A stretch of 64,000 nucleotides of DNA from a phage. How positions within the stretch are numbered: position 1 is the first letter of the stretch; each line of letters opens with the position of its first letter. Below the pieces are notes generated by a model, which saw only the letters and a program-made list of their open reading frames with translations, was not told where the DNA came from and did no database searches. The stretch is from the NCBI GenBank assembly GCA_036253495.1, contig GCA_036253495.1_4125.1; one strand, given 5' to 3'. The position numbers and the translations under genes are program-made. Positions 50,361 through 63,287 of this stretch are shown here, one piece after another.

Positions 50361-50990
50361 TTAAACACATATAGCTAGGGGAAGCTCCGTAGTGCAAGCA
50401 TTATACAGGCTTTAACATATGTTGCATATGTTAAAATTCAGCCTGGACAAATGCGATCACTAGGATTCTCCCCAGGCTAAACCCCGTAATCATAAGTAAT
50501 CATATATAAACATTTAAGTAATCATTTATAATCATTGTAGTGAACAGTATTGAGTACTAGAGTGCAGGAATGATTCAGAATGATTCAGTACTGATATCCC
50601 ACTAAGTAGGCAAATGAAGTCGCCCAAAATTTACATAATTTTACAGTACTGAACAATTGCAAAACAAATCATTTCCAATCAAAAGTAATCACGGAATGAC
50701 CAGTACTGAAAACTCCCAATCACCTATTCAAAAAAGTTCAATTTACCCTTTGTCAAAAATCCCGAATACCCATTGGGGAAAATTCCGAATACCCCTTGAG
50801 GCTCCAGCAAAAAGTTGGTTAGTACTCCATCGTAAATCTGGATCGTAAAAATTTTGGAGTACCTATGAAATAAAAGTTGGATCTTCGAAAGTTGAAATTT
50901 ACATTGGGACATATAGGATTAGTGGGATATAATGAGTTTTGAAGAGATACAGAGTATACGATTTCAGTACTGAATAATGGAAGAAATCTA

Positions 50991-51018
50991 TTGACATTAT
51001 GATTCAGTACTGTATAAT
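50991..51018 (+). promoter_or_regulatory. orphan sigma70-like promoter in the ORF-free region
   Basis: TTGACA, 16 bp spacer, extended -10 TGTATAAT; no ORF follows; T-run near 51131-51141. Confidence 0.45.
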
Positions 51019-51150
51019 GTTCTACATAGAGTGATGAATTGCCGCAAACAATTCAGAGCCTTAGCCCTCCTGTCGTGAGACAGTACAGAAGAGATTGAAT
51101 CCTCCTATGCAGTGGTTCATCTTTGACAACCTCTTTTTTCGTAATATAAA

Positions 51151-51218
51151 CAGTACTGTTATTAACAGAATGGTAGCAGTACTGTTATTAACAGAATGGT
51201 AGCAGTACTGATATTAAT
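51151..51218. repeat. 26-bp tandem direct repeat, about 2.5 copies
   Basis: CAGTACTGTTATTAACAGAATGGTAG twice, then a partial third copy. Confidence 0.8.
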
Positions 51219-51454
51219 CTAATATAATGTTACCATGCAATGTGGTGAATTTCCCTTAACAGTATTCAGTACTACATGATAGTCTTCATCCTCCTAGGGT
51301 AACATAGTGAGGGCTATGATGGCAGTACTGAATACTCCCTTCTTAAAGATAGATCTATGGTATAGTACTGACGGATTTTGGGCGTAGTAACCCTGGGTGG
51401 ATTTTGGACGTAGAGATGCCTAGCCCTCCAGAAGTCTGGAAGTAAAGATGGCTA

Positions 51455-51570
51455 TCCCTCTAGACGGCTGGATGGCTGGATGGCTAGATTTCTAGATGGC
51501 TGTACTGCTAGACGTTTGGACGGCTAAACGGCTAGATGGTTAAACGTCTGGATGTATAGACGGTTAAATC
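51455..51570. repeat. iteron-like array of short degenerate direct repeats
   Basis: GGCTGGAT / GGCTAGAT / GACGGCTAAAC / AGACGGTTAAA units repeated about ten times, followed by an AT-rich T-run. Confidence 0.7.
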
Positions 51571-51731
51571 AAAATTTTTATTTTGTTTTTTCCAATAGTT
51601 CCCCTACCGCGTGGGGATGGTTTCCCCGCAGTATCTGGAGTTAGATTTTTCTGAATCTGGAAACATTATCCCAGTTTTAGCGGGGTATGTCAACCGCCTG
51701 GATGAATATTTTTAAAAAATAATCTAGTACT

Positions 51732-51806
51732 GAATTTTGGGCGTAACTATGCACCCGGTGGGCTAGAGTCTTTCTCGACTTGATGAAATAATTATAGCAG
51801 TACTGA
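51732..51806 (+). repeat. conserved noncoding element family A, copy 1
   Basis: ATTTTGGGCGTA..GCACCCGGTGGGCTAGAG..TGATG.AATAATTATAGCAGTACTG. Confidence 0.6.
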
Positions 51807-51906
51807 ATTATAAAAGCAATAGCCTAAGTGTAAAAAGTTTTAATTAATTTGCTTGCCATCCTGGGGCGTACTATGGTACTATGATTCAGTACTGAGAAAG
51901 TACTTT

Positions 51907-51933
51907 GACCCGCTAGGGTGCGGGAGTGTATCC
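51907..51933 (+). repeat. conserved noncoding element family B, copy 1
   Basis: CCCGCTAGGGTGCGGGAGTGTATCC. Confidence 0.5.
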
Positions 51934-51946
51934 TTTTTAAATTTAC

Positions 51947-52015
51947 TGAATTTTGGGCGTAGTTCCGCACCCCCTGGGGTATCCGCTTTCTCGCGTCTAT
52001 GTAGTAATTATACGC
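51947..52015 (+). repeat. conserved noncoding element family A, copy 2
   Basis: ATTTTGGGCGTAGTTCCGCACCCCCTGGGGTATCC..TCTATGTAGTAATTATACGC. Confidence 0.6.
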
Positions 52016-52264
52016 TTTTTTAGTACTGAGTCAATAGCTAAAAACAAAATAATTGAAAATAATTTAACGCGTTTAAACGGCCCGTAAAGCCCTGGATTGT
52101 TGGGAGTGGTGCAAATGTATAGCTTAGGTGTATTAATGCGTTAGAATGCGTCTGAGGCCGTTTTAAGGGTATAGTACTGAATAATTGTACTCACTGGATT
52201 GATTCAGTACTGAATGATAGTACTCCTATATAGAAAGAAAACTATTTTAAAAGTATTTGCAGAA

Positions 52265-52327
52265 AGTACTTGCATACTATGTTTAAGGGCGTATAATGTT
52301 TTACATCGAGACGGGGGAAACGCTCCT
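52265..52327 (+). promoter_or_regulatory. promoter with 5' hairpin
   Basis: AGTACTTGCAT -35, TATAAT, then GACGGGGGAAACGCTCC. Confidence 0.6.
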
Positions 52328-52353
52328 AACTCACTTTAATAGGAATTAAAACG

Positions 52354-52716
52354 ATGGCGACTCAAATCACTAAAATCATTGCTAACCTGGTTAACTTTCG
52401 CGAAGAGATGAAAGATCTTCCGGCTGAGACTGTAAAGATTCATATTTCAGCTTATCGGGAATTGATTGCAATGTTGCCGCTTAAGCGTGAACAATACGCC
52501 GCTACTGTGATGCTTGATGCGATGATCCACAAGATGATTGCCAGTGATTTAACGATGGCTTATCAGTACATGGGCGAACTATTTGCGGTGTATAGTAAAC
52601 CAGTGCCTGGGATGGAAAGTACAGAAGTATTGCACGGCTTAAACTTAAAACAAGATGCATGGGATAATATGCCTCGTTTCCTGGTATGGGCTGACAGTGG
52701 CAAGATTTACGAATAA
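52354..52716 (+). CDS. hypothetical protein
   Basis: 120 aa ORF. Confidence 0.6.
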   Translation: MATQITKIIANLVNFREEMKDLPAETVKIHISAYRELIAMLPLKREQYAATVMLDAMIHKMIASDLTMAYQYMGELFAVYSKPVPGMESTEVLHGLNLKQDAWDNMPRFLVWADSGKIYE

Positions 52717-52726
52717 GTTTTAAAAA

Positions 52727-52788
52727 GTACTTGCAAAGTAAGTTTAAAAGCGTATAATGTTTTACATCAGGTGGGGAATAGTTCCCCA
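52727..52788 (+). promoter_or_regulatory. promoter with 5' palindromic hairpin
   Basis: AGTACTTGCAA, TATAAT, GTGGGGAATAGTTCCCCAC. Confidence 0.65.
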
Positions 52789-52810
52789 CTATATAAGAGG
52801 ATTTTTAATT

Positions 52811-53050
52811 ATGGCTACTACTAAAACTTTCAACGGTCACAAAAACAAAACTCATTGGAATGTAAGCCTTTGGATTAATAACGATGAGTCATTGTATCGT
52901 CTGGCGAAAGAATTTATCGACGCTAATACTAATCGTAATGATGCGGCCCGTCATATGATGCTATTTTTAGAACAAATTGGACAAGATAAAACTCCAGACG
53001 GTTTCAAGTATAGCACTACGGCGATCCGTGCTGCAATGGTTGGAATGTAA
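52811..53050 (+). CDS. hypothetical small protein
   Basis: ATG 52811 after AGAGGA; track ORF from 52757. Confidence 0.6.
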   Translation: MATTKTFNGHKNKTHWNVSLWINNDESLYRLAKEFIDANTNRNDAARHMMLFLEQIGQDKTPDGFKYSTTAIRAAMVGM

Positions 53051-53132
53051 GAGAATAGATTTAAAGTACTATTGCACGGTGATAGTACTTTATAATAGAT
53101 TTCTTTTATACAACAACGATAGGGGTAACAGC

Positions 53133-53399
53133 ATGAATATTATATACTTTGCAACGCGTGAACAAGCTCGGCAAGCGGCAAAGGTTGACGGTGCAACGTT
53201 TAAAGATATGGGCGTACAATCTGAACGTGGTAAACGTTGGGCCGTAGTAAAGCAAAGTACAGCCCGATCAATTCAGTACTGGCTATCGGCTTTAAAGAGT
53301 CCTGATAGTGTATCGCGTCGAGTGGTAGAAATAAAGCACGACCGCAAGGGCAACCGTGTTACTGTGTACAGTACTAAAAAGATTGCAGTACTTGAATAA
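53133..53399 (+). CDS. hypothetical small protein
   Basis: ATG 53133; track ORF from 52977. Confidence 0.55.
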   Translation: MNIIYFATREQARQAAKVDGATFKDMGVQSERGKRWAVVKQSTARSIQYWLSALKSPDSVSRRVVEIKHDRKGNRVTVYSTKKIAVLE

Positions 53400-53401
53400 A
53401 A

Positions 53402-53463
53402 GTACTTGCAAAGTAATTAGATTAACGTATAATACTTTCTATCAGGTGGGGAATAGTTCCCCA
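53402..53463 (+). promoter_or_regulatory. promoter with 5' palindromic hairpin
   Basis: AGTACTTGCAA, TATAAT, GTGGGGAATAGTTCCCCAC. Confidence 0.65.
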
Positions 53464-53486
53464 CTACAAATAAGAGGATTTTTAAA

Positions 53487-53717
53487 ATGGCTATTATGTA
53501 TATGACCGAAGTTAAAACCGTAAAAGATACTACCACTAATAAAACTACTTACTTACAGCGGGTATGCGGTGTATGGCAACGTATTAGTAAAGCAAAGTAC
53601 TTTAAATTAACATCATATGCTAATCGTTCGGATTCATTCAGTACTGAAATAAAAGGTAATAAATTACACCAATACGGCACTTATTATTATTATAGCCTGG
53701 ACGCGATTGCAGTCTAA
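53487..53717 (+). CDS. hypothetical small protein
   Basis: 76 aa, AGAGGA RBS. Confidence 0.55.
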   Translation: MAIMYMTEVKTVKDTTTNKTTYLQRVCGVWQRISKAKYFKLTSYANRSDSFSTEIKGNKLHQYGTYYYYSLDAIAV

Positions 53718-53799
53718 GCAGTTTACAAATCTTTACAATTGCCGGTATTGACTTATTTTGTCAGTACTGGCATAATGTATCTATTGAAACGAACAATTT

Positions 53800-53824
53800 G
53801 GCCCACGGGGTGCGGGAGTGTATC
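53800..53824 (+). repeat. conserved noncoding element family B, copy 2
   Basis: GGCCCACGGGGTGCGGGAGTGTATC. Confidence 0.5.
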
Positions 53825-53855
53825 TATAGAAAAAGTAGTTTAGTACAGTTACAAT

Positions 53856-53905
53856 TGTGCACCCTATGGGTTAGCTGTTGTCATGGGGTATATTATACCA
53901 GTACT
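53856..53905 (+). repeat. conserved noncoding element family A-like, copy 3
   Basis: GTGCACCCTATGGGTTAGCTG..ATTATACCAGTACT. Confidence 0.45.
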
Positions 53906-53964
53906 TGATAATGCTGTCAATACTTTTTTTTTACTATTCAGTACTGAAAACTATTTTTTAAAAA

Positions 53965-54037
53965 GTACTTGCATACTATGTTTAAAGGCGTATAATGTTT
54001 TACATCAGGACGGGGAACGAAATAAGTAACTCCCCGT
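53965..54037 (+). promoter_or_regulatory. promoter with long 5' hairpin / leader element
   Basis: AGTACTTGCAT, TATAAT, then ACGGGGAACGAAATAAGTAACTCCCCGT; leader resembles 57001-57050. Confidence 0.55.
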
Positions 54038-54085
54038 TAAGTAGCCCAGGAGTAAGGCACACGAAAAACTCCCCTGATAAAATAG

Positions 54086-54113
54086 TTTGACAAATGTTTT
54101 TAAAAGCGTATAA
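54086..54113 (+). promoter_or_regulatory. sigma70-like promoter
   Basis: TTGACA, 16 bp spacer, TATAAT. Confidence 0.55.
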
Positions 54114-54146
54114 TACTTACATCAACTACTGAATGAGAGTTACAAA

Positions 54147-54821
54147 ATGAAAACTATCACTACTACTACTTTCGTTATGGATTTTTCTGAATTGAATGAG
54201 GGTGGCAAAGCGAAAACTATCACTACTACTACTTATGTTATGGCTTTTTCTGAATTGACCGCAGAACAACAAACGTCAGCTATCGAACTGGTTCGGGATC
54301 GTGAGCGTTCATGCGGGGATGATTTCTTTTCTGAGTCAGTGATCGAATACTATAAAGAAACATTATTGCCGGAATATGGCATTAATGACGCAGATTTACG
54401 ATTCAGTGGTTTTTGGTCGCAGGGTGACGGTGCATCAATCAGTACTGATCACGTTGACGGTGTGAAGTTTTTACGCAAGATTAAAGCATTAACTAAGTAT
54501 CGTTCTATCCGTCACCTGCTGAATGAAGATGATTTGGCAATGAGTGTAAAGCGTTCTCACTCCCACTACTCGCATGAAAACACTGTAAGCGGGTACATTG
54601 AATCGGCTTACACTGATTTAACCGCAAAACAAGAAACGTTAGTTAATGAGCTTGAGGAACTACTCACTGAAACTATTCGTGAATTATCTCGCAAGTTGTA
54701 CCGTGATTTAGAGAATGCATATGAGGATCAATTCACTACTGAGAACATTGTAGCACTGATTGAGGGTAACGAATATCAATTCAATGTTATTGATGGCGTA
54801 GTAGAATCAATCGAATATTAA
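54147..54821 (+). CDS. hypothetical protein with N-terminal internal duplication
   Basis: 224 aa; KTITTTTFVMDFSEL repeated as KTITTTTYVMAFSEL. Confidence 0.6.
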   Translation: MKTITTTTFVMDFSELNEGGKAKTITTTTYVMAFSELTAEQQTSAIELVRDRERSCGDDFFSESVIEYYKETLLPEYGINDADLRFSGFWSQGDGASISTDHVDGVKFLRKIKALTKYRSIRHLLNEDDLAMSVKRSHSHYSHENTVSGYIESAYTDLTAKQETLVNELEELLTETIRELSRKLYRDLENAYEDQFTTENIVALIEGNEYQFNVIDGVVESIEY

Positions 54822-54838
54822 TTCAGTACTGAATCAAT

Positions 54839-54857
54839 GGCGGGAGTGGTTCCCGCC
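54839..54857 (+). promoter_or_regulatory. 5' palindromic hairpin (no obvious own promoter)
   Basis: GGCGGGAGTGGTTCCCGCC just upstream of the RBS of 54878. Confidence 0.5.
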
Positions 54858-54877
54858 TATAACCAGGAGTAAGCATC

Positions 54878-55111
54878 ATGATCGAACAAATTCAAACGAC
54901 TACTAGCCGGAGCGGAACGAAAGTACATTCCATCGCTGATACTGATAAAGGTGTACCCTATTGTGCTGTACACGTAAACACTGACGGTGACTATTGGTTA
55001 ACTGTATACGGGCGTTACTCGTTTGCTTTTAGTGCACATAGTAAGATCCTGGAAGTAGTGAAGCCAACGGGTAAAAATATTACCGCTGAAATGTTTTATA
55101 AAAAGCACTAA
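54878..55111 (+). CDS. hypothetical small protein; paralog of 56247..56483
   Basis: Shared GVPYCAVHVNTDG.YW.TVYG ... PTGKNITAEMFYKK. Confidence 0.65.
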   Translation: MIEQIQTTTSRSGTKVHSIADTDKGVPYCAVHVNTDGDYWLTVYGRYSFAFSAHSKILEVVKPTGKNITAEMFYKKH

Positions 55112-55114
55112 AAA

Positions 55115-55176
55115 GTACTTGCAAAGTAATTAGATTAACGTATAATACTTTATATCGAGAGCGGGAATAGTTCCCG
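55115..55176 (+). promoter_or_regulatory. promoter with 5' palindromic hairpin
   Basis: AGTACTTGCAA, TATAAT, GCGGGAATAGTTCCCGC. Confidence 0.65.
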
Positions 55177-55196
55177 CCTATACTGAGGATTATCTA

Positions 55197-55478
55197 ATGA
55201 GCAAAGTAATTAACTATACAGTACTAAGCAAGTCATTGTCTATCAGTGAGTGCACCGATGGTTATTGGCTTTATGATGAAACGCGTGGCATGAATTTAGC
55301 TATGCAGGAGAAAACTACTGATGCGGCATATCTTAAAGCACTGGAATACTACCAGAAGCGTTTAAAGGAAGTAGAAAACGATTATAATAACCTGAAAGCG
55401 AAAGTAGATAATTTCGTTGGTCAATTCGTTGACGATGACGAGGGGCACTACTGCGACCGTTGCGGATCTTACAGTTAA
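55197..55478 (+). CDS. hypothetical small protein
   Basis: 93 aa; C-terminal CDRCGSYS. Confidence 0.6.
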   Translation: MSKVINYTVLSKSLSISECTDGYWLYDETRGMNLAMQEKTTDAAYLKALEYYQKRLKEVENDYNNLKAKVDNFVGQFVDDDEGHYCDRCGSYS

Positions 55479-55495
55479 GTACTAAGGATTATATA

Positions 55496-55699
55496 ATGAG
55501 TGATTTAATTGAACGTATCAAAGAGCTTGAAGAAAAAGAATTGCAGCTAATCGGCTTACAGAATAAAATCTATCATGATTTGGGGAGTTTTATCAATGCC
55601 TGGGATAGTGGCGATCCTGATGCGTTACCTGCTAACCGCCAGGCGATGATCAATGATGTGCGTCGTGTCTTTGAGTATGTTTTTAAGCAATTAAATTAA
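55496..55699 (+). CDS. hypothetical small protein
   Basis: ATG 55496 after TAAGGA; track ORF from 55460. Confidence 0.55.
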   Translation: MSDLIERIKELEEKELQLIGLQNKIYHDLGSFINAWDSGDPDALPANRQAMINDVRRVFEYVFKQLN

Positions 55700-55702
55700 A
55701 AA

Positions 55703-55765
55703 GTACTTGCAATTAGTTTTCAGTACTGTATAATAGTTTACATCAAGGGGAGAAATGGTTCTCCC
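55703..55765 (+). promoter_or_regulatory. promoter with 5' palindromic hairpin
   Basis: AGTACTTGCAA, CAGTACTGTATAAT, GGGGAGAAATGGTTCTCCC. Confidence 0.65.
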
Positions 55766-55784
55766 TGGTAATGAGGAAAATACA

Positions 55785-56006
55785 ATGGCTAACATTACTA
55801 CCCTTTCCCAACTTGAAGCACTGGTTAAATCTATGCGGGAACATGCCGACAATATCGGCGTAAAAGATCCAGCCGTTTGCTTCTGCGACGATGTAAATGA
55901 TGATACACTGGTAATAGCAGAAGTCCAGGACGTTTCTAACTATTCATCGCGTTACACTGGCGGTGTAGCAAATAAAGGTGACTTCTGTTTATACCTTACT
56001 AAGTAA
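55785..56006 (+). CDS. hypothetical small protein
   Basis: ATG 55785 after GAGGAA; track ORF from 55755. Confidence 0.55.
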   Translation: MANITTLSQLEALVKSMREHADNIGVKDPAVCFCDDVNDDTLVIAEVQDVSNYSSRYTGGVANKGDFCLYLTK

Positions 56007-56066
56007 TACAGAGGGGATCGATTGATCCCCTTTATTTTGCAGTACTGAATCATTTAATAGACGGAT

Positions 56067-56127
56067 CTATGCACCCGGTGGGTTAGAGACTGTATCGTCT
56101 TGATGTAGTAATTATGCCAGTACTGGA
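56067..56127 (+). repeat. conserved noncoding element family A, copy 4
   Basis: CTATGCACCCGGTGGGTTAGAG..TCTTGATGTAGTAATTATGCCAGTACTGG. Confidence 0.6.
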
Positions 56128-56169
56128 TGCAGTTGTCAAGAACTATTTTTCAAATACTTTTTATTAAAA

Positions 56170-56225
56170 TACTTGCTAATAGTTTTTAAACGCGTATAAT
56201 GTTTTGCATAGGGGAGCGGTTCCCC
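56170..56225 (+). promoter_or_regulatory. promoter with 5' palindromic hairpin
   Basis: TACTTGCTA, TATAAT, GGGGAGCGGTTCCCC. Confidence 0.6.
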
Positions 56226-56246
56226 TGGTAACTAAGGAATAAGAAA

Positions 56247-56483
56247 ATGCTTGAACAAATCAAAACAACGTCTGCGAATGTAACGGGAACGGTATCACAC
56301 TTTATTGGTGATGAATCGCGGGGCGTACCCTATTGTGCTGTACATGTAAACACTGATGGCAACTACTGGTTTACGGTTTACGGATCTTATTCATTTGGTC
56401 GACCTGGACATCAAAAAATCCTGGATAAAGTACAGCCAACGGGTAAAAATATCACTGCTGAAATGTTTTATAAAAAATCATAA
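56247..56483 (+). CDS. hypothetical small protein; paralog of 54878..55111
   Basis: 78 aa; same conserved core. Confidence 0.65.
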   Translation: MLEQIKTTSANVTGTVSHFIGDESRGVPYCAVHVNTDGNYWFTVYGSYSFGRPGHQKILDKVQPTGKNITAEMFYKKS

Positions 56484-56484
56484 A

Positions 56485-56546
56485 GTACTTGCAATTAGTT
56501 TTTAGTACTGTATAATATTTTACATAGCAAGGGGGAACGGTTCCCC
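56485..56546 (+). promoter_or_regulatory. promoter with 5' palindromic hairpin
   Basis: AGTACTTGCAA, TAGTACTGTATAAT, GGGGGAACGGTTCCCC. Confidence 0.65.
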
Positions 56547-56566
56547 TGGTAACTAAGGATAATCAA

Positions 56567-56866
56567 ATGAAAATTGCAATCATCGCCCTGGCTTTATCTG
56601 TTTCCTCTTTCGCTGTTAATGCGTCATTAGATGTACCTGGTGATAAATTCATTCAGTGCACAGTAGCAATGACAGATGAAAGTACTGGCGAGATTGTTTT
56701 AAAGGATCTGGAATTACAGCCAGAAGCATTTAAAAACGGGCCGTTCCATGAAGAAGACGAAAAAGGTAGCACAACAATTTATTATGATGCAATGAAAAAA
56801 CGTGGTTCTGTCACTGTTATGGATACTGAGAAAGTAACGCATACAGGCGTTATTAACTGCCTATAA
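56567..56866 (+). CDS. putative secreted small protein
   Basis: Signal peptide MKIAIIALALSVSSFAVNAS. Confidence 0.6.
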   Translation: MKIAIIALALSVSSFAVNASLDVPGDKFIQCTVAMTDESTGEIVLKDLELQPEAFKNGPFHEEDEKGSTTIYYDAMKKRGSVTVMDTEKVTHTGVINCL

Positions 56867-56886
56867 TACATCAGTACTGAATCACT

Positions 56887-56913
56887 AGCCCACTATAAGC
56901 AGTGGGCTTTTTT
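56887..56913 (+). terminator. Rho-independent terminator
   Basis: AGCCCACTATAAGCAGTGGGCT + T-run. Confidence 0.75.
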
Positions 56914-56961
56914 GTAGTATCGTAGTACTGGAATACTTTGAAAATAGTTTTAAAAAAGTAG

Positions 56962-57050
56962 TTGACATTACCGCAAAAAGGCGTAGAATGTATTACATCA
57001 AGACGGGGAACACTAAGTAGACCGCCAGTAAGTCGAACGAAAAACTGGAC
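56962..57050 (+). promoter_or_regulatory. promoter plus conserved long leader element
   Basis: TTGACA, TAGAAT; leader ACGGGGAAC..AAGTAG..AGTAAG..CGAAAAACT resembles 54010-54075; about 110 nt 5' UTR. Confidence 0.5.
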
Positions 57051-57112
57051 ACGTCGAGAAAACTTTGATACACTAACTAACGTAAACTAAACTTTAATTG
57101 AGGAATTACATA

Positions 57113-57595
57113 ATGGCTAACGTAAAATCATTCATCAAAGCACTGGTAGCAAATGAAACTAACGTAGCGGCAGAAATCCTGGCCGAACTGGATAGCGATA
57201 CCATGAAAGCAGTACGCAACAATTTTAACATTGCGTACAGCGAAGCGAAAGAACTGCAAGCTAATAAAGCGGCAGCACTTGAAGCTGAGAAGGCAGCACG
57301 CGAAGCTGAATTGCAGAAAACGATTGAAGATATTAACGCCGCCGTCGCTGGGCTTGATCTGGAAGTAGTTACCGAAATGGCACGTAAAGCCCTGGCAGCG
57401 AAATACGGGGAAGACAAGCCAGAAGTAAAAGCTAAAAAATGGATTCAAGAACGTGTGACGGTTGTACTGGATAATGGCGAGGAATACACTGTACCAGTAC
57501 GCGGTAACTGCATTGCGGTAGTACTGGATGCTATCAAAGAAAGCGGATTGACTCGCGAGGAATGGATCGAATCTCATCGCAAAGTTGAAGCATAA
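57113..57595 (+). CDS. hypothetical A/E/K-rich protein
   Basis: ATG 57113 after GAGGAA; track ORF begins at a TTG at 57098. Confidence 0.6.
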   Translation: MANVKSFIKALVANETNVAAEILAELDSDTMKAVRNNFNIAYSEAKELQANKAAALEAEKAAREAELQKTIEDINAAVAGLDLEVVTEMARKALAAKYGEDKPEVKAKKWIQERVTVVLDNGEEYTVPVRGNCIAVVLDAIKESGLTREEWIESHRKVEA

Positions 57596-57616
57596 CAATT
57601 AAAGTACTGAATCACT

Positions 57617-57644
57617 AGCCCACCTTAAACAGTGGGCTTTTTTT
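57617..57644 (+). terminator. Rho-independent terminator
   Basis: AGCCCACCTTAAACAGTGGGCT + T-run. Confidence 0.75.
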
Positions 57645-57660
57645 GTGTCTATAGTATCCC

Positions 57661-57770
57661 AGTCCACCAGCACCGCCTAGAATCGATTCTAACGCATTAA
57701 ACTGATTATCTGATGCATCGCCCTAGCTGGTGGCGTTAAGGTCGTTAGAATGCGATTGAGAGCGTTTAAA
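57661..57770. repeat. long imperfect inverted repeat containing the CGTTAGAATGCG element
   Basis: CCACCAGCACCGCCTAGAATCGATTCTAACGC ... GCCCTAGCTGGTGGCGTTAAGGTCGTTAGAATGCGATTGAGAGCGTTTAAA. Confidence 0.5.
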
Positions 57771-57794
57771 GTATTTTGCAAAAAGTAATAAAAA

Positions 57795-57826
57795 GTACTT
57801 GCACGATAAAGAGATTAGCGTATAAT
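57795..57826 (+). promoter_or_regulatory. sigma70-like promoter
   Basis: AGTACTTGCAC, TATAAT. Confidence 0.55.
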
Positions 57827-57871
57827 TAATTACATCAAGGCGAGACACCTTAACTAACTGAGGATATAAAG

Positions 57872-58024
57872 ATGAATACTTATGAACTGGATTGTTTCAC
57901 TTTACAAGTAATGTCAGTATGCAGTAAAAAAGATTGGTCATCAAAGGAATTTAAAGCAGTTATCGCGTGTGCAAAACACGGCAAGACTATCAATGAAACG
58001 GCATCAATCATTGATAAACTTTAA
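57872..58024 (+). CDS. hypothetical small protein
   Basis: 50 aa hand-translated; GAGGAT RBS. Confidence 0.4.
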   Translation: MNTYELDCFTLQVMSVCSKKDWSSKEFKAVIACAKHGKTINETASIIDKL

Positions 58025-58032
58025 AAAATAGT

Positions 58033-58061
58033 TTGACAATAGTTTTAAGTACTGCGATAAT
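58033..58061 (+). promoter_or_regulatory. sigma70-like promoter
   Basis: TTGACA, 17 bp spacer, GATAAT. Confidence 0.5.
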
Positions 58062-58094
58062 ACATACATCAACTACTGAATAGGAATCAAAACA

Positions 58095-58322
58095 ATGGCT
58101 ATCGTAATCACTCGCGTAACTGGTACTACTGGCAATTCTTCTACTGTTGCTGTAATTACTAATAAGAAAGGTGCGGAATTGCATTTTGCAATGGATACCT
58201 GGGCAGTGAATGAGTTCGGTCAGTGGGCTAGTGTAGAATACATTGAATCCTATCAAGTGCCATCGATTAGCTTAACTGATTTAGGTGTAGAACGTATCCT
58301 TTGCCTGGATGAATTAAATTAA
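58095..58322 (+). CDS. hypothetical small protein
   Basis: 75 aa ORF. Confidence 0.55.
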   Translation: MAIVITRVTGTTGNSSTVAVITNKKGAELHFAMDTWAVNEFGQWASVEYIESYQVPSISLTDLGVERILCLDELN

Positions 58323-58326
58323 AAAA

Positions 58327-58390
58327 GTACTTGCAAAGTAAATCAAATAAAGTATAATACATTACATCAAGGGGAGAAATGGTTCTCCCC
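58327..58390 (+). promoter_or_regulatory. promoter with 5' palindromic hairpin
   Basis: AGTACTTGCAA, TATAAT, GGGGAGAAATGGTTCTCCCC. Confidence 0.65.
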
Positions 58391-58408
58391 ACTAAGAGGA
58401 AACGAAAA

Positions 58409-58552
58409 ATGAAAACTTGTCAATGTGGTAAAAAATCTATTACTGGTTTAAAGCGGGGCGTTGCTCTTTGTCAGTATCACTATAATGCTCAAGTATGGGG
58501 TAAAGAGTGGGCCGACCGGGTTGAAGCATCAAAGAAAGCAAAAAGTAAGTAA
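58409..58552 (+). CDS. small cysteine-containing protein (possible zinc ribbon)
   Basis: 47 aa hand-translated; CQCG ... LCQYH. Confidence 0.45.
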   Translation: MKTCQCGKKSITGLKRGVALCQYHYNAQVWGKEWADRVEASKKAKSK

Positions 58553-58571
58553 AAATATTATCACAGTACTA

Positions 58572-58600
58572 TTGACATAGATTGATAGTACTGGCATAAT
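58572..58600 (+). promoter_or_regulatory. sigma70-like promoter within a ~95-bp duplicated intergenic block
   Basis: TTGACA, 17 bp spacer, CATAAT; block recurs at 58860-58950 and 62740-62830. Confidence 0.6.
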
Positions 58601-58643
58601 AGATTTTATCAAGACAACACATATTAATTTAAGGAATACTAAA

Positions 58644-58856
58644 ATGGCTATCATTATTAAAAACAAAGTTAACAAGACTATCGTTAAACTGGCAGAAGTG
58701 AAAGAAGGTTATAAAGTATCTTGGGAGGGTTTTTATAGGATGTTCACAGATATAGACGATGCAATCAAGTACTACACTGATACGGTTGCTGACTTTGTTC
58801 GTTCTGATGTAGTAATGGCAGTTGCACAACATAAAGCATCGAAAGAAAGTAAGTAA
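58644..58856 (+). CDS. hypothetical small protein
   Basis: 70 aa; MAII start shared with 62828 gene. Confidence 0.55.
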   Translation: MAIIIKNKVNKTIVKLAEVKEGYKVSWEGFYRMFTDIDDAIKYYTDTVADFVRSDVVMAVAQHKASKESK

Positions 58857-58875
58857 AATTATTATCACAGTACTA

Positions 58876-58904
58876 TTGACATAGTTTGATAGTACTGGCA
58901 TAAT
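58876..58904 (+). promoter_or_regulatory. sigma70-like promoter (duplicated block copy 2)
   Basis: TTGACA, CATAAT; leader identical to copy 1. Confidence 0.6.
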
Positions 58905-58947
58905 AGATTTTATCAAGACAACACATATTAATTTAAGGAATACTAAA

Positions 58948-59271
58948 ATGGCTAAAACTATCATTAACACCGTATCCCTGGCTGCAATCCGTGCAATCAA
59001 TGTTGACGGTAAACGTTGGACTGATTCATATGGCAATACTTATCATTCTTGTCATGTAAGCGTTGAACTGGATAACGGTGTGAATGATCTGGCGGTTGAA
59101 TCATTTACTTATGGCTATGAAGATGCATATCAACAAACGGCGTTATCTCTCTTAAAGGAATCAGTAGATGGGCTTGATACTGTTGAAACCTCCCTTAATC
59201 GTTTGTGCAATGATTTGTCTATCCCGTTGCATTGTACTGTACAGAATGTTAAACGCAAAAAAGATCTTTAA
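58948..59271 (+). CDS. hypothetical protein
   Basis: 107 aa ORF. Confidence 0.55.
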   Translation: MAKTIINTVSLAAIRAINVDGKRWTDSYGNTYHSCHVSVELDNGVNDLAVESFTYGYEDAYQQTALSLLKESVDGLDTVETSLNRLCNDLSIPLHCTVQNVKRKKDL

Positions 59272-59351
59272 TTAGCTTTACTTTATGCAGATACTTTGAT
59301 ATAGTGTCTGCATAGGGGAAAGAAATTAAATTAACTTAAGAGGATAGTATA

Positions 59352-59621
59352 ATGAAAAATATCAGTACTTTAATCGATGCAGGTACGCATGTTCGTCGGT
59401 CTATGGTTGCAACCAGTACTACAAAACAAGTAGCGAGCGGTTATCTTGTATTTGTGCACGATGGTAAACTCCTGGAACGTTCAATCAATTTTGATGTTAA
59501 AAACAATTGCCGTTTTATTATCTTTAAGCGTGAACAATATAAAATTGATTTACCAGCGAAGCCCATAAGCGGGGCGTACAACGTGCAATCATTGTTTGAG
59601 CGTCAACCATACACCTATTAA
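59352..59621 (+). CDS. hypothetical small protein
   Basis: 89 aa, AGAGGA RBS. Confidence 0.55.
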   Translation: MKNISTLIDAGTHVRRSMVATSTTKQVASGYLVFVHDGKLLERSINFDVKNNCRFIIFKREQYKIDLPAKPISGAYNVQSLFERQPYTY

Positions 59622-59672
59622 TCAAAACATCGTTAGCGGTTGATTTAGGCCGCTTATATTGAGGATTATACC

Positions 59673-59942
59673 ATGAACGTTAATCAAGTACTGAATGAAG
59701 TTGAAAGCATCATTAAACCAATGAAACGAATTGATGCAATTCCTACACCGGAAGAATGCCGCCTTTATGAGCGTTACAGTGTAGAACAAGCCCAGGCGAT
59801 GGCCCGTATCCGTCCGGTTGCTAGTACTGAGAACGCGGATCAGGACGTTACAGGGGATTATATCATTAATCCAGTACTAGGGAAGATGCCGCCAATCACC
59901 GAAGAACAAAAAGACTATTTGAGCCAGTACTTAAAAGGTTAA
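59673..59942 (+). CDS. hypothetical small protein
   Basis: 89 aa, GAGGAT RBS. Confidence 0.55.
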   Translation: MNVNQVLNEVESIIKPMKRIDAIPTPEECRLYERYSVEQAQAMARIRPVASTENADQDVTGDYIINPVLGKMPPITEEQKDYLSQYLKG

Positions 59943-59947
59943 TTAAT

Positions 59948-60157
59948 ATGCTTACTGTACAGGATAAGATCGACATCTTAAAGGTTAATATGTATGTGAT
60001 TGATGCAGATCCTGAAAAAGTATTTGCATACGATGATTCTAATCGTAGTCCTTTCTATTGTAGTCATGTAGTTGGATACGTGCCGTTGGCGTATGTTATC
60101 GAAAGAGTGGTTGATGCAGCATACAATCATTTTTTAGAAAATAATACTTGCAATTAG
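59948..60157 (+). CDS. hypothetical small protein
   Basis: 69 aa ORF. Confidence 0.45.
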   Translation: MLTVQDKIDILKVNMYVIDADPEKVFAYDDSNRSPFYCSHVVGYVPLAYVIERVVDAAYNHFLENNTCN

Positions 60158-60206
60158 TTTTCAGTACTGTATAATGATTTGCATCGAGAGCGGGAATGGT
60201 TCCCGC
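60144..60206 (+). promoter_or_regulatory. promoter with 5' palindromic hairpin
   Basis: TACTTGCAA, CAGTACTGTATAAT, GCGGGAATGGTTCCCGC. Confidence 0.65.
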
Positions 60207-60229
60207 CTAACTCAAAGAGAGAAAATATA

Positions 60230-60472
60230 ATGGAAACTATTTTAATCAAAGACACTGCAACTACTGTTACTTATGATAATGATTGTATTATCCCTGGCAC
60301 TGATTACGGTGAACGTGTACCCGTTCAAGTCGAGATTGATACTACATACATTGACCAGGCTGAAAAGTGTATCACTATTGTTATTGGTGAATATCGTTTT
60401 CTACCAGAAGAGATCCAAAAATGGCAGTATATGATTGACCGTGCGAAATTAGTCGCACAAAGTTTAAAATAA
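60230..60472 (+). CDS. hypothetical small protein
   Basis: ATG 60230; track ORF from 60179. Confidence 0.55.
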   Translation: METILIKDTATTVTYDNDCIIPGTDYGERVPVQVEIDTTYIDQAEKCITIVIGEYRFLPEEIQKWQYMIDRAKLVAQSLK

Positions 60473-60535
60473 TACTTGCAATTAGTTTTCAGTACTGTAT
60501 AATGTTTTACATGAAGGGGAGAAATAGTACTCCCC
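60472..60535 (+). promoter_or_regulatory. promoter with 5' palindromic hairpin
   Basis: TACTTGCAA, CAGTACTGTATAAT, GGGGAGAAATAGTACTCCCC. Confidence 0.65.
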
Positions 60536-60554
60536 ACTAATTAAGGAATATGAA

Positions 60555-60701
60555 ATGAAAGCATCAAAAAAGAGTAATACTAAGAAAGCATGTTCACCTT
60601 TCGCTGGGGTATTCCCTTTACGTTTCGTTGATGAAGTGGTTTCCTACCCGCCGGGCCTTACTCCTGAGATGGTAGAAAGTTTGCGTAAATCTAAAAAATA
60701 G
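60555..60701 (+). CDS. hypothetical small basic protein
   Basis: 48 aa hand-translated; AAGGAA RBS. Confidence 0.45.
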   Translation: MKASKKSNTKKACSPFAGVFPLRFVDEVVSYPPGLTPEMVESLRKSKK

Positions 60702-60764
60702 TACTTGCAATTAGTTTTCAGTACTGTATAATGTTTTACATAGAGGGGGGAAATGGTTCTCCCC
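60701..60764 (+). promoter_or_regulatory. promoter with 5' palindromic hairpin
   Basis: AGTACTTGCAA, CAGTACTGTATAAT, GGGGGGAAATGGTTCTCCCC. Confidence 0.65.
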
Positions 60765-60782
60765 GATACTAGGAGAATCAAA

Positions 60783-60935
60783 ATGAAACAATATAATGCT
60801 CGGTTTGATGTTACTATCGGCAACGGCAAAGGTCAATTTTCTTTCAGTACTCGTCGCAGTTATACAGAAAACTTCCTGCGTAATTGTGCATTGACCGCCG
60901 CACAAATTAAACATTACTTCCAGGCTAAAAAATGA
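60783..60935 (+). CDS. hypothetical small protein
   Basis: ATG 60783 after AGGAGA; track ORF from 60753. Confidence 0.5.
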   Translation: MKQYNARFDVTIGNGKGQFSFSTRRSYTENFLRNCALTAAQIKHYFQAKK

Positions 60936-61021
60936 AATCATTGGCTTATTACAGTTCGGCGGTGATCGGTGCATTGATCGCGGCATTGTTAGTAACCTAT
61001 CTATTCTTTGTGGTGATTTAA
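60932..61021 (+). CDS. small hydrophobic peptide
   Basis: 29 aa hand-translated, single TM-like segment, ATGA overlap. Confidence 0.3.
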   Translation: MKSLAYYSSAVIGALIAALLVTYLFFVVI

Positions 61022-61159
61022 ATGAATCCTAACGGTTTAATTTATAGTACTCCTAAAACGAAAGCAGATAAAGCGAAAGCACGTAAAGCGAAAGTAAAGG
61101 AGTACATCAAGCAAGGCATGACGCGAAAAGCAGCAGTACTAAAAGCTAAAAATAAATGA
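61022..61159 (+). CDS. small K/A-rich basic peptide
   Basis: 45 aa hand-translated, TAAATG coupling. Confidence 0.4.
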   Translation: MNPNGLIYSTPKTKADKAKARKAKVKEYIKQGMTRKAAVLKAKNK

Positions 61160-61166
61160 AAAAAGT

Positions 61167-61198
61167 GGTTGACTTCGGTCAGCCATTTTGCTATTATA
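61167..61198 (+). terminator. terminator hairpin overlapping promoter -35
   Basis: GGTTGAC-TTCG-GTCAGCC, short T-run, TATTAT. Confidence 0.6.
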
Positions 61199-61221
61199 TA
61201 TTCATTGAGAGATAGCTCACT

Positions 61222-61246
61222 AGCCCACCGGGTGCGGAAGTGTAAA
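61222..61246 (+). repeat. conserved noncoding element family B, copy 3
   Basis: AGCCCACCGGGTGCGGAAGTGTAAA. Confidence 0.45.
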
Positions 61247-61278
61247 TAAAATATATCAATCTAATAAGGAGTACTACA

Positions 61279-61461
61279 ATGTTTAAACCAATCGAACTAG
61301 CGGCATCACATATCATCGGTAAACCTGCCGTTATCATACGCCAGGAAGACGTAAACCTATGGATCATCTATGTAGACATGAAAGAGATTGAGCGTCACGA
61401 TGATTTCAAATCAGCGTCAATTGCGTATGATATGGCGTTATGTGAGTATCAAAGAGATTAA
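61279..61461 (+). CDS. hypothetical small protein
   Basis: 60 aa, AAGGAG RBS. Confidence 0.55.
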   Translation: MFKPIELAASHIIGKPAVIIRQEDVNLWIIYVDMKEIERHDDFKSASIAYDMALCEYQRD

Positions 61462-61477
61462 AAGTATTTTGCAAAAA

Positions 61478-61540
61478 GTACTTGCATTGTACTTAGAATC
61501 AAGTATAATGTTTTACATAGCAAGGGGAAACGGTTTCCCC
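61478..61540 (+). promoter_or_regulatory. promoter with 5' palindromic hairpin
   Basis: AGTACTTGCAT, TATAAT, GGGGAAACGGTTTCCCC. Confidence 0.65.
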
Positions 61541-61561
61541 TGGTAACTAAGGAAATGAATT

Positions 61562-62029
61562 ATGAATAGCATCGAATTCGTCGCAGCAGTACAAGAAAAC
61601 TTCCTGAAAGTATTCCCTAACGGTTTCTTTATCGCCCGACCTTTACCGCTGGGTGGCGACGTGGGGATCACTATGTCACTGACTCGCGAGCTTGCCGACT
61701 GCCCCCACAATATCCGCGATAACGACCGCATGATGATGACCTTTGCGATCCACGGTATGAAGTTCGGGGATAGCGACGAATACACAGACAAGCTGATCAT
61801 GGAACCGTACCGCAGCGTTATCAGTACTATTCCACGTAAACAGTACTACGCGATGGGACATGACAAAATCCCTACCCGTAAGACTACAAACACGCCTGAG
61901 AAGCTGTTAGCGACTCTTAACAAGTATATTCGGGCCGCAGGTAAACAGGTGTTAGATCTTAAAGCATTAAACGAGATTTACCAACAGGAAAACATCAAAG
62001 AGCAGTACTTAGAAATTAACGTAAAATAG
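61562..62029 (+). CDS. hypothetical protein
   Basis: 155 aa ORF. Confidence 0.6.
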   Translation: MNSIEFVAAVQENFLKVFPNGFFIARPLPLGGDVGITMSLTRELADCPHNIRDNDRMMMTFAIHGMKFGDSDEYTDKLIMEPYRSVISTIPRKQYYAMGHDKIPTRKTTNTPEKLLATLNKYIRAAGKQVLDLKALNEIYQQENIKEQYLEINVK

Positions 62030-62093
62030 TACTAGACAACACAACGGGGCTATTATATAATAGTCCCATCTTAAGCAAACAAGGAACTACAAA

Positions 62094-62432
62094 ATGATCT
62101 CAATCGCTCAATCTAACTTTGAAAACGAAATCATCGCCCAGGCACTGCGTTTAAATGATGGTCGGGCCGAAATTAATTACGGTTTCAATTCAGGCGGTTG
62201 TGAAAACTATCAGTACTTTGTAACGGCTGATGGCGGTGTCCTGGGAATCAATACAGTTATTGTAAACATTCAGAAAATTAATTTCAATGATCCAGAAGAT
62301 AGCCAGTTTTACATCACGGGCGTAGACGTGAACTATGAGGATGACTCACTAACTGATGATTGCACTGGTGAGAAGTTAGAAAGTGCATACGGTGAAGATG
62401 ATTATCAGTCCGGTCCAGAAGATTTCGAATAA
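62094..62432 (+). CDS. hypothetical acidic protein
   Basis: 112 aa ORF. Confidence 0.6.
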   Translation: MISIAQSNFENEIIAQALRLNDGRAEINYGFNSGGCENYQYFVTADGGVLGINTVIVNIQKINFNDPEDSQFYITGVDVNYEDDSLTDDCTGEKLESAYGEDDYQSGPEDFE

Positions 62433-62448
62433 TATAAAAAATAGTTTG

Positions 62449-62511
62449 ACAATAGATTATAGTACTGTATAATAAGTTACATCAAGGGGAGAATAGTTCT
62501 CCCCACAAACA
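62449..62511 (+). promoter_or_regulatory. promoter with 5' palindromic hairpin
   Basis: TTGACA, TAGTACTGTATAAT, GGGGAGAATAGTTCTCCCC. Confidence 0.65.
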
Positions 62512-62524
62512 GAGAGAAAACAAA

Positions 62525-62737
62525 ATGGCTAATATCCGCACTGTACTGAAAAATGCAAAACAAGTTTTATTTTCTGATCATGAAAATTTCAACAAGGATA
62601 TCACAGGCGTTCGGAATATCAAAGATGTAAAAAATGTTATGGGTATCTATTGCAATATGAAACGTGTTGGCACGTTCGGCGATAAAGTACTATACCAGGC
62701 AGGGGATTACAATTTTACACTGACTATCATTAACTAA
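62525..62737 (+). CDS. hypothetical small protein
   Basis: 70 aa ORF. Confidence 0.55.
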   Translation: MANIRTVLKNAKQVLFSDHENFNKDITGVRNIKDVKNVMGIYCNMKRVGTFGDKVLYQAGDYNFTLTIIN

Positions 62738-62756
62738 AAATATTATCACAGTACTA

Positions 62757-62785
62757 TTGACAACGTTTGATAGTACTGACATAAT
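62757..62785 (+). promoter_or_regulatory. sigma70-like promoter (duplicated block copy 3)
   Basis: TTGACA, 17 bp spacer, CATAAT. Confidence 0.6.
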
Positions 62786-62827
62786 AACTTTTATCAAGAC
62801 AACGCATATTAACTTAAGGAATTAAAA

Positions 62828-63007
62828 ATGGCTATTATCGCAAAAACTGAAATCGTTGGTCTGGATTCTATCATCATGACGTTTGAAGATCAAAAAGGGA
62901 TGTATGTAGTTTCCTATGGTGATTATGTTCGGGAGTATGAAACGGTAGACGAAGCCTTTGAAAGTTACATTCGCCAGGTGAATAAAGCATACGACGACTA
63001 CCGCTAA
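62828..63007 (+). CDS. hypothetical small protein
   Basis: 59 aa hand-translated; MAIIAKTEIV. Confidence 0.5.
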   Translation: MAIIAKTEIVGLDSIIMTFEDQKGMYVVSYGDYVREYETVDEAFESYIRQVNKAYDDYR

Positions 63008-63034
63008 AATATATTACCAGTACTATTAAAGATA

Positions 63035-63062
63035 TTGACATAGTTTGATAGTACTGTATAAT
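63035..63062 (+). promoter_or_regulatory. sigma70-like promoter
   Basis: TTGACA, 16 bp spacer, extended -10 TGTATAAT. Confidence 0.6.
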
Positions 63063-63106
63063 AAGTTTTATCAACAGTAGTTAACTTAACCTAAGAGAGA
63101 AAGAAA

Positions 63107-63250: not shown

Positions 63251-63256
63251 GATTAT

Positions 63257-63287
63257 AGCCCACTGGTTAACGCTGGTGGGCTTTTTA
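63257..63287 (+). terminator. Rho-independent terminator
   Basis: AGCCCACTGGTTAACGCTGGTGGGCT + T-run. Confidence 0.7.

Follow-up and report, generated by a model that had tools for sequence, protein, structure and literature searches.

Repeated promoter elements that shuffle small phage genes have been described as promoter-early stem-loops (PeSLs) in the T4-like phages RB49/phi1, PST/T4 and nt-1/KVP40 (Arbiol et al. 2010, PMC2839356; Comeau et al. 2014, PMC4122927). A PeSL consists of a repeated sigma-70 promoter, an A/T-rich upstream region, a stem-loop of a G-run and a C-run, a ribosome-binding site and a start (PMC2839356, PMC4122927). PeSLs lie between ORFans in hyperplastic regions, flank indels and replacements, and mediate modular shuffling (PMC2839356, PMC4122927). 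Here we analyzed a 64,000-nucleotide stretch of phage DNA (NCBI GenBank assembly GCA_036253495.1, contig GCA_036253495.1_4125.1; hereafter the window), in which an array of 32 small genes, encoding proteins of 45-224 amino acids (aa), occupies 52256..64000 and is punctuated by repeated intergenic cassettes. The promoter, terminator and mini-circle activities of PeSLs were shown experimentally (PMC2839356, PMC4122927), whereas for the cassettes described here promoter activity is a prediction from sequence. We show the anatomy of the cassettes, how units vary between genomes, where the crossovers fall and how old the copies are relative to each other, and we consider it likely that cassette-mediated modular shuffling explains the whole pattern.

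Five features of PeSLs were found in this locus: a promoter, a stem-loop, boundaries running from stop codon to start codon, a plastic region of small genes, and exchange points inside the cassettes. Moreover, one published PeSL subclass also has its stem-loop downstream of the -10 box. The two systems differ in several respects. The phage analyzed here is an Asteriusvirus, a Rak2-like jumbo phage, and not T4-like; its array lies in a terminal repeat of about 21 kb, whereas PeSLs lie in internal hyperplastic regions; its main hairpin follows the predicted transcription start and has no T-run; and its cassettes carry the palindrome AGTACT, with units that also occur in a different phage subfamily. 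When the cassette was compared by blastn with all phage records, no T4-like genome was matched, suggesting that it is a functional analogue of PeSLs and not a homologue. By this comparison, the cassette system would be an independent, or at least very distant, instance of PeSL-like shuffling.

Three other systems bear some resemblance to the locus. The terminal repeat of phage T5 carries the pre-early genes, which are small and stand behind strong host-type promoters. The array shares with it the arrangement of a long direct terminal repeat (DTR) of small genes with strong host-type promoters, presumably the first DNA to be expressed, but there is no homology between the two and nothing in the window points to a two-step DNA transfer; we also know of no cassette-mediated unit shuffling in T5. 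Like integron arrays, the locus consists of small single-gene units that are bounded by a repeated element capable of forming a hairpin and that are gained, lost and reordered. However, integron cassettes are promoter-less and are moved by an integrase acting on attC, whereas each unit here brings a promoter with it, the locus has no integrase, and its crossover intervals are those expected of homologous recombination. Finally, the ompA 5' stem-loop and the repetitive extragenic palindromic (REP) elements are 5'-terminal or intercistronic stabiliser hairpins of E. coli mRNAs. The G/C hairpin of the cassettes is similarly placed, either a few nucleotides (nt) from the predicted 5' end or, where there is no promoter (54822-54877), between cistrons; but a stabilising role is putative, and 5-9 unpaired nt precede the stem, which is above the optimum for 5'-end protection.

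Cassette anatomy and the terminal repeat

The source phage was identified as an Asteriusvirus (a PBECO4/121Q/G17-like E. coli jumbo phage), whose relatives have genomes of 350-385 kb. Between 54 and 57 kb of the window, its DNA was about 92% identical to G17, Sharanji, PBECO4 and A4, and 86% identical to 121Q. Since no record gave full coverage or more than 93% identity, the phage is a distinct member of the group. The genes of the array lie between 52354 and 63933, mostly separated by 82-92 nt, and unless stated otherwise the features described below are on the plus strand. The ratio of nonsynonymous to synonymous divergence (dN/dS) against the relatives was 0-0.5 for every testable open reading frame (ORF) of the array, suggesting that these ORFs are real genes under purifying selection. 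Sequence searches of Pfam, PHROGs and PDB gave no function for the two paralogs discussed below, for gene 5 or for the other array genes; matches of array proteins to Tox-PL-2 and HVO_A0114 were weak, lay below the cut-offs of those families and were discarded. Rfam at its gathering thresholds found no family in the window, and ARAGORN found no tRNA there.

An earlier note on this DNA had proposed that small-gene units were being actively duplicated and reshuffled in this part of the window. The off-diagonal similarity that this proposal predicts was present when 52-64 kb was compared with itself: a repeat search returned at least 60 families of direct repeats, because nearly every intergenic region copies one of a few cassettes. 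The common type, class I, begins with the stop codon of the preceding gene inside an A-rich element (AAAAAGTAC) and continues with a -35 box (TTGCAA or TTGACA), a spacer of 16-17 nt that often contains CAGTACTG, TATAAT, about 7 nt, ACATC, a hairpin, a ribosome-binding site and the ATG of the next gene. The combination of -35 box, spacer and TATAAT is preceded by AAAAAGTAC in about 25 intergenic regions; in the cassettes TAA overlaps the A-rich element, and AGGA or GAGG stands 6-10 nt before the ATG. A promoter scan counted 76 promoter-like sites where 44 +/- 7 were expected. Class II cassettes, at 58553, 58857, 62738 and 63008, have AGTACTATTGACA..TAGTACTGGCATAAT, and their -10 box lies within an A/T inverted repeat (TTGATAG/TTTATCAA); the G/C hairpin is missing from them. 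The blastn search mentioned above matched 70 records, all of them Rak2-like jumbo phages or members of the group of phage W70; the Rak2-like carriers infect Escherichia, Salmonella, Klebsiella, Yersinia, Erwinia and Serratia. Literature searches on Asteriusvirus, rV5-like and Rak2-like phages returned generic predictions of RpoD-like promoters only, and no prior description of the cassettes, the paralogs or AGTACT.

We then analyzed the leader hairpin. Folding gave a G/C stem of 6-9 bp at -13 to -17 kcal/mol in 17 of the 32 leaders. A covariance model built from 16 leaders found 16 full copies of the hairpin cassette and a few degenerate ones, all on the plus strand and 15 of the 16 within 52.7-63.7 kb. 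In other phages the same model found 77 more copies in five Asteriusvirus relatives and two in W70, whereas phi92, tuntematon and slur16 had none. The stems vary in sequence while their shape is kept, as in GGGGAGAA/TTCTCCCC, GCGGGAA/TTCCCGC, GTGGGGAA/TTCCCCAC and GGGATGA/TCATCCC. In the model-fitted alignment 86.7% of the cells pair, three pairs are changed on both sides, and the covariation score was reached by none of 500 shuffles. On a plain MAFFT alignment of the leaders, in which loops of 3 and 4 nt shift the stems out of register, the RNAalifold consensus was weak for that reason (-0.56 kcal/mol). The class I hairpins are without a T-run and were not picked by the terminator scan; canonical terminators are separate elements, at 56887, 57617 and 63257.

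A different hairpin was seen in a near-identical composite, GGG-TTGACTTCGGTCAGCCC-TTTTTGCTATAAT, which occurs at 19785, 24075, 26941, 27670, 29303 and 61162-61197. It forms an 8-bp hairpin with a UUCG loop, in which the 5' arm is a -35 box and the following T-run is the spacer before an extended -10 box, suggesting that it is a terminator and a promoter in one. These terminator-in-promoter composites (the last one at 61169) resemble the commonest PeSL subclasses.

The start of the DTR was placed at about 50605 by homology, and the repeat (50605..64000) continues beyond the end of the window. From here on the window is collinear with positions 1-13,131 of phage fEgEco12, a relative whose repeat has been defined experimentally; position 54 of fEgEco12 corresponds to 50657 of the window, and the first bases of that phage, AGTAGGCA, to about 50605. 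The fEgEco12 termini were set by PhageTerm and restriction digests (PMC13070987), and the DTRs of relatives measure about 21 kb (PMC13070987, PMC11895373). The record of phage JP4 (PQ330092.1) has two repeat copies 20,114 bp apart, with a junction at the same place as our boundary; this block of about 20.1 kb, standing twice in tandem inside the sequence, looks like terminal repeats joined by assembly. With the left end of the DTR at about 50605, what the earlier note had called the right module is the beginning of the DTR, and the stretch that it had singled out (54147-56483) lies 3.5-5.9 kb inside. The first 1.7 kb of the DTR (50605-52353) has no convincing ORF, and the equivalent stretch is unannotated in 121Q and fEgEco12; AGTACT sites and promoter-like sites on both strands are dense in it.

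Unit polymorphism and crossover intervals among relatives

We compared the array with those of five relatives, G17, 121Q, CRJP21, PBECO4 and fEgEco12. For 12 of the 32 genes an orthologue in the same slot was missing in at least one of them. Genes 25 and 26 (61279..62029; 60 and 155 aa, the larger belonging to phrog_21515, of unknown function) were found in none of the five; they sit between the terminator-promoter composite and a class I cassette. The breaks in synteny were not evenly placed: 25 of 30 distinct breakpoints fell into intergenic DNA +/- 10 nt, which makes up 35% of the region (p = 7e-8). At the deletion sites, the two flanking alignments overlap by 45-120 nt on one and the same cassette. 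Around the missing gene 16 of G17, for example, this overlap amounts to 120 nt and falls on one cassette.

The clearest cases concern three class I cassettes that flank genes 21 and 22 (60135-60229, 60463-60554 and 60692-60782) and are 81-86% identical to each other; the stretch 60135-60782 is the site of three independent deletions or insertions of units in relatives. Together with one event elsewhere, these give four events that could be read at their junctions: G17 without gene 21, 121Q without genes 21-22, PBECO4 without gene 22, and 121Q without copy B of the paralog pair described below. All four junctions are chimeric: as far as the promoter core the relative matches the upstream configuration, and beyond the core it matches the downstream one. 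At the junctions around genes 21 and 22 (G17, 121Q and PBECO4), the parent switches inside ATA(A/G)TACTTGCAATTAGTTTT(C/T)AGTACTGTATAAT. A switch of parent inside the core is the signature of crossing-over within an identical core of 35-45 nt. That units of this array are reshuffled, as the earlier note had stated, was thus borne out by the 12 variable genes of 32, the 25 of 30 breakpoints that fall at cassettes, the four chimeric junctions, and a reordering of units in W70 that is described below.

We therefore favor, as the likely explanation, a model in which the cassettes carry the exchange. An early-gene array would lie at the start of the DTR, with every small gene forming an expression unit of cassette plus ORF; the cassette would supply a strong sigma-70-type promoter, an A-rich upstream element, a G/C hairpin at the transcript start and a ribosome-binding site. 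About 20 cassettes in the same orientation, sharing identical cores of 35-45 nt, would act as portable homology. Recombination between two cassettes of one genome would delete or duplicate the unit between them, or overwrite one cassette with the other, and recombination between co-infecting phages would swap or add units. The homologous recombination machinery of the phage or of the host would presumably act on these repeats. From established knowledge, early transcription would be by the host RNA polymerase, and the hairpin may protect transcript ends or damp read-through.

It could be argued that the cassettes have no role in recombination: they would resemble each other through constraint, units would move by illegitimate recombination, and selection would keep those events that fall between genes. 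Under such selection intergenic breakpoints are indeed expected, the promoter part of the cassette is conserved as far as the jumbo phages of Erwinia and Serratia, and non-coding AGTACT is conserved at 80-87%, compared with 62-65% for background hexamers. However, constraint alone does not produce paralogous cassettes that are more alike than orthologous ones, as was found for genes 16 and 4 (see below), and it does not account for flanks that align onto one shared cassette with overlaps of 45-120 nt or for a parent switch inside the core in four of four cases. We consider this explanation quite unlikely.

Several points nevertheless weigh against shuffling by cassettes and temper the model. 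The intergenic position of the breakpoints is partly expected because selection removes indels that break genes, and each of the events may be a loss in the relative or a gain in this phage, as the data do not fix the direction. The promoters, the transcription start sites and the early timing are predictions. The conservation of the promoter spacer, which extends to the jumbo phages of Erwinia and Serratia, may be due to a bound factor and not to common descent by duplication. The covariation of the stem is modest, and a 3' partner shifted by one column pairs similarly, because the arms are G-runs and C-runs. Lastly, having no T-run, the class I hairpins are unlike intrinsic terminators, and a terminator role is doubtful.

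Relative ages of the paralogs, the tandem repeat and the cassettes

The earlier note had presented a pair of paralogs, an N-terminal tandem repeat and three leader blocks together as recent duplications. This amounts to saying that small genes, N-terminal repeat and leader blocks were all copied lately within this genome and are now diverging. We examined the three kinds of repeat separately, and their ages were found to differ.

The paralogy itself was confirmed. Paralog A (54878..55111, 77 aa) and paralog B (56247-56483, 78 aa, forming with its own cassette at 56161-56246 the unit 56161..56483) are identical at 52 of 77 aa (68%, E = 2e-39), including the motifs that had been quoted for them, and at 79% of the DNA over 155 nt, and both match phrog_9227. 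B is the genus-wide copy of what we call slot 2: its orthologues, at 91-97% aa identity, occupy the same slot in about 40 Asteriusvirus genomes, including G17, CRJP21, PBECO4 and fEgEco12, and the unit is missing from 121Q, where the cassette has a chimeric junction. A, on the other hand, is a divergent allele in slot 1, without a close relative. Among 50,697 phage records its closest match was 121Q gp272, in the same slot, at 73-74%; at the nucleotide level A is 70.9% identical to the 121Q allele, compared with 83-99% in the flanks. A search for a closer relative of A yielded only 121Q in IMG/VR and at best 68% in metagenome contigs, and an exact-sequence look-up gave no record.

Synonymous divergence (dS) gave the same picture. 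It was about 1.05 between A and B and about 2 between A and the 121Q allele, whereas B differed from its G17 and PBECO4 orthologues by 0.19-0.27 and from the 121Q slot-1 copy by 0.8. For neighbouring genes, dS between this phage and its relatives was 0.04-0.8. The divergence of A from B thus exceeds that of the neighbouring genes from any relative, suggesting that the pair is not a recent duplication. Furthermore, A and the 121Q slot-1 allele have derived residues in common (I2, L41, SAH and a terminal H), suggesting that the slot-1 lineage predates this genome.

Across six genomes the slot after gene 5 has four different occupants. The window and 121Q have the phrog_9227 family there, G17 has a gene of 88 aa, CRJP21 and fEgEco12 have one of 54 aa, and PBECO4 has DUF7249. 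The boundary of slot 1 in the window (54822..54877) is a promoter-less joint made of TTCAGTACTGAATCA, the hairpin GGCGGGAGTGGTTCCCGCC and a ribosome-binding site, and in PBECO4 the same element stands before another gene. The DUF7249 gene after gene 5 (PBECO4 8856-9095; vB_Ec-M-J 3333-3572) is a second copy, about 70% identical in aa to the copy at 52811-53050 of the window, and here, too, the placement of a unit has created a pair of paralogs. The reading we prefer for A and B is that they are old alleles of a single mobile unit which occupied different slots and were brought together, or were both kept, in this genome. Against this reading, A may be an outsider or an ancient, fast-evolving paralog that arose in the genome, and the evidence fits either.

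The N-terminal repeat reported for gene 5 (54147..54821; 224 aa, phrog_5162, function unknown) was also found. It consists of two 63-nt copies in frame and head to tail (54130-54192 and 54193-54255), identical at 55 of 63 positions (13% diverged). The duplicated unit spans the ribosome-binding site, the start codon and the first 15 codons of gene 5, the first copy taking in 17 nt of 5' leader plus the start codon. As the leader was included in the duplication, the gene 5 protein begins MKTITTTTFVMDFSEL-NEGGKA-KTITTTTYVMAFSEL, while the PHROG profile starts only at residue 25 and the protein has 203 aa in most relatives. The dN/dS of the gene is 0.15-0.30. A 6-nt direct repeat, CTGAAT, stands at both boundaries of the unit, as is usual after slipped mispairing.

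In 36 of 38 Asteriusvirus records the unit was present in single copy (the alignment showing a 63-nt gap), so the duplication is derived. It is not fresh, though. Phage vB_Ec-M-J has the identical junction and the identical loss of the start codon in the second copy (ATG to GCG), suggesting that the duplication predates the separation of these two alleles. The copies differ at eight of 63 positions, and three of the eight differences correspond to single-copy alleles of other phages (F/Y, D/A), suggesting that the copies may go back to two alleles that unequal exchange had joined. When the exact sequence of the duplication junction was searched for in viral contigs, nothing was returned. We propose that the repeat would be a separate and older event, slipped mispairing between the CTGAAT microhomologies, which would have added 21 N-terminal residues before the internal start was lost. 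In the record BAU.Micro_ELP-22 (OR699282.2), a perfect 77-nt tandem duplication at 2603-2756 runs out of frame in the gene 5 orthologue and splits the annotated gene. This second duplication is independent, lies directly downstream of the site of the 63-nt repeat, and stems either from a very recent mutation or from faulty assembly. The 5' region of gene 5 appears to be prone to duplication events.

The leader block that the earlier note had listed three times was indeed found three times (58542-58665, 58846-58969 and 62727-62850; the second copy is 94% and the third 75% identical over 124 nt), although it is one class among many repeated cassettes. The coordinates in that note proved accurate to about 10 nt. 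The blocks contain class II cassettes at 58553..58643, 58857..58947 and 62738..62827, upstream of gene 16 (58644), gene 17 (58948) and the gene at 62828, respectively. The first two are 99% identical over the 88 nt that precede their start codons (58644 and 58948), and the third reaches 87-88% over the same distance before its own ATG. Gene 16 (58644..58856, 70 aa), which lies between the two near-identical cassettes, is missing in G17 and fEgEco12. In the five relatives the gene 17 cassette is conserved at 94-99%, whereas the gene 16 cassette is only 58-76% identical to the orthologous cassette in 121Q, CRJP21 and PBECO4. This contrast suggests that in this lineage one cassette overwrote the other or was copied beside it, i.e. 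the near-identical cassettes around gene 16 would mark a recent cassette conversion or duplication. A weaker case is the cassette of gene 4, which is 82% identical to that of gene 2 and 64-66% identical to its orthologues.

Taken together, the pair 58553-58643/58857-58947 is the only truly recent repeat, and recent duplication held for this pair and failed for the paralogs. That everything was copied recently in place is therefore very unlikely as a general explanation. The 99% identity of the two cassettes does speak for it, as does the lack of the tandem repeat in 36 of 38 relatives and the fact that this genome is the only one found to carry two phrog_9227 copies in each terminal repeat (not one of the 224 phage records with the family has a second copy there). 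But paralogs with 68% aa identity and a dS of 1.05 are older than the split from the relatives, which refutes it for that pair; the slot-1 lineage marked by the residues common to A and 121Q is older than this genome; and the tandem repeat is common to vB_Ec-M-J, with copies that differ at eight of 63 positions.

AGTACT, exchange beyond the genus and significance

The most unusual thing we observed, and one worth a separate follow-up, is the palindrome AGTACT. It occurs 250 times in positions 1-64000, where 21 +/- 5 copies were expected (an 11.5-fold excess), and it is the only strongly over-represented 6-bp palindrome in the window. The copies occur throughout the window, in non-coding DNA as well as in each of the three reading frames, and their extended consensus is CAGTACTG. 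The terminal-repeat arrays of five other Asteriusvirus phages were about 19-fold enriched; phi92, tuntematon and slur16 showed no enrichment. Eight palindromes (ACCGGT, AGCGCT, AGGCCT, CAGCTG, CCATGG, CCCGGG, CCGCGG and CGATCG), each expected 2-7 times, have no copy in the window. The missing palindromes, all containing G/C, are ordinary restriction-site avoidance, against which the excess of AGTACT stands out more.

Exchange also reached beyond the genus. In W70 (OP778610.1, 137 kb, Vequintavirinae), positions 2900-7700 contain at least eight units of the array in a different order (g14-g15, g28, g16, g2, g7, g27, g10), at 70-86% nucleotide identity; two W70 cassettes fit the covariance model. 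In W70 the paralog family is represented by a copy with 88-92% identity to the slot-2 allele of Asteriusvirus, whereas typical Vequintavirus copies reach 58-60%. In the 10.7-kb W70 locus all eight AGTACT sites fall into a 1.5-kb patch with cassettes of the Asteriusvirus type (3024-4545). This confinement to the shared patch points to transfer from an Asteriusvirus-like donor.

These observations raise the question of whether an enzyme moves the units, a phage nuclease or recombinase that would recognise AGTACT or the hairpin and act site-specifically, as with integron cassettes or homing elements. The enrichment of AGTACT (11.5-fold in the window, about 19-fold in the relatives' arrays) and its confinement to the shared patch in W70 would fit such an enzyme, and many homology boundaries (54823/54825, 55109/55114, 55697/55702, 56481/56484) have an AGTACT within a few nt. 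Site-specific recombination was also left open for PeSLs by Arbiol et al. (PMC2839356). However, AGTACT is abundant inside genes across the 64 kb as well and so does not single out the junctions of units; the array, whose products are all of unknown function, contained no identifiable recombinase or nuclease; and the crossover intervals consist of 35-45 nt of identity, which ordinary homologous recombination explains. We regard movement by an enzyme as highly improbable, and continue to favor homologous recombination between cassettes. A related idea, which we hold to be unlikely, is that the cassettes would be more than passive homology, with AGTACT serving Rak2-like jumbo phages as a dedicated cis element which a phage factor binds or cuts. 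It would mark the edges of units and promote their exchange, and early units would then move AGTACT-tagged even into unrelated coliphage families such as the W70 group.

Several other elements were seen in the region. In the gene-free gap at 53718-54146, consensus promoters face each other about 170 bp apart (53748-53920); their predicted transcripts are short and fully complementary, and fold into a long hairpin (-27 to -31 kcal/mol). Further minus-strand promoters, at 56139, 52034 and 51819, read into the ends of plus-strand units. The facing and minus-strand promoters all carry a conserved element, GCACCCGGTGGG or CCCACCGGGTGC; there was no match to an Rfam family. The ORF at 56567-56866 encodes a 99-aa protein with an N-terminal signal peptide, which PHROGs lists as of unknown function; its orthologue in fEgEco12 has the putative label 'protein spackle', a superinfection-exclusion factor of T4.

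The small genes in the terminal repeats of Rak2-like phages, of which there are dozens without known function, are probably the first to be expressed and are probably involved in host takeover or counter-defence. The cassette system would explain why this part of the genome is so variable, and the cassettes provide a rule by which units can be delimited, and promoters predicted, when further genomes are analyzed. They also call for caution, in that similar pairs in such arrays are not automatically fresh duplications. Finally, the system would extend modular shuffling of the PeSL type past the T4-like phages and across phage families.

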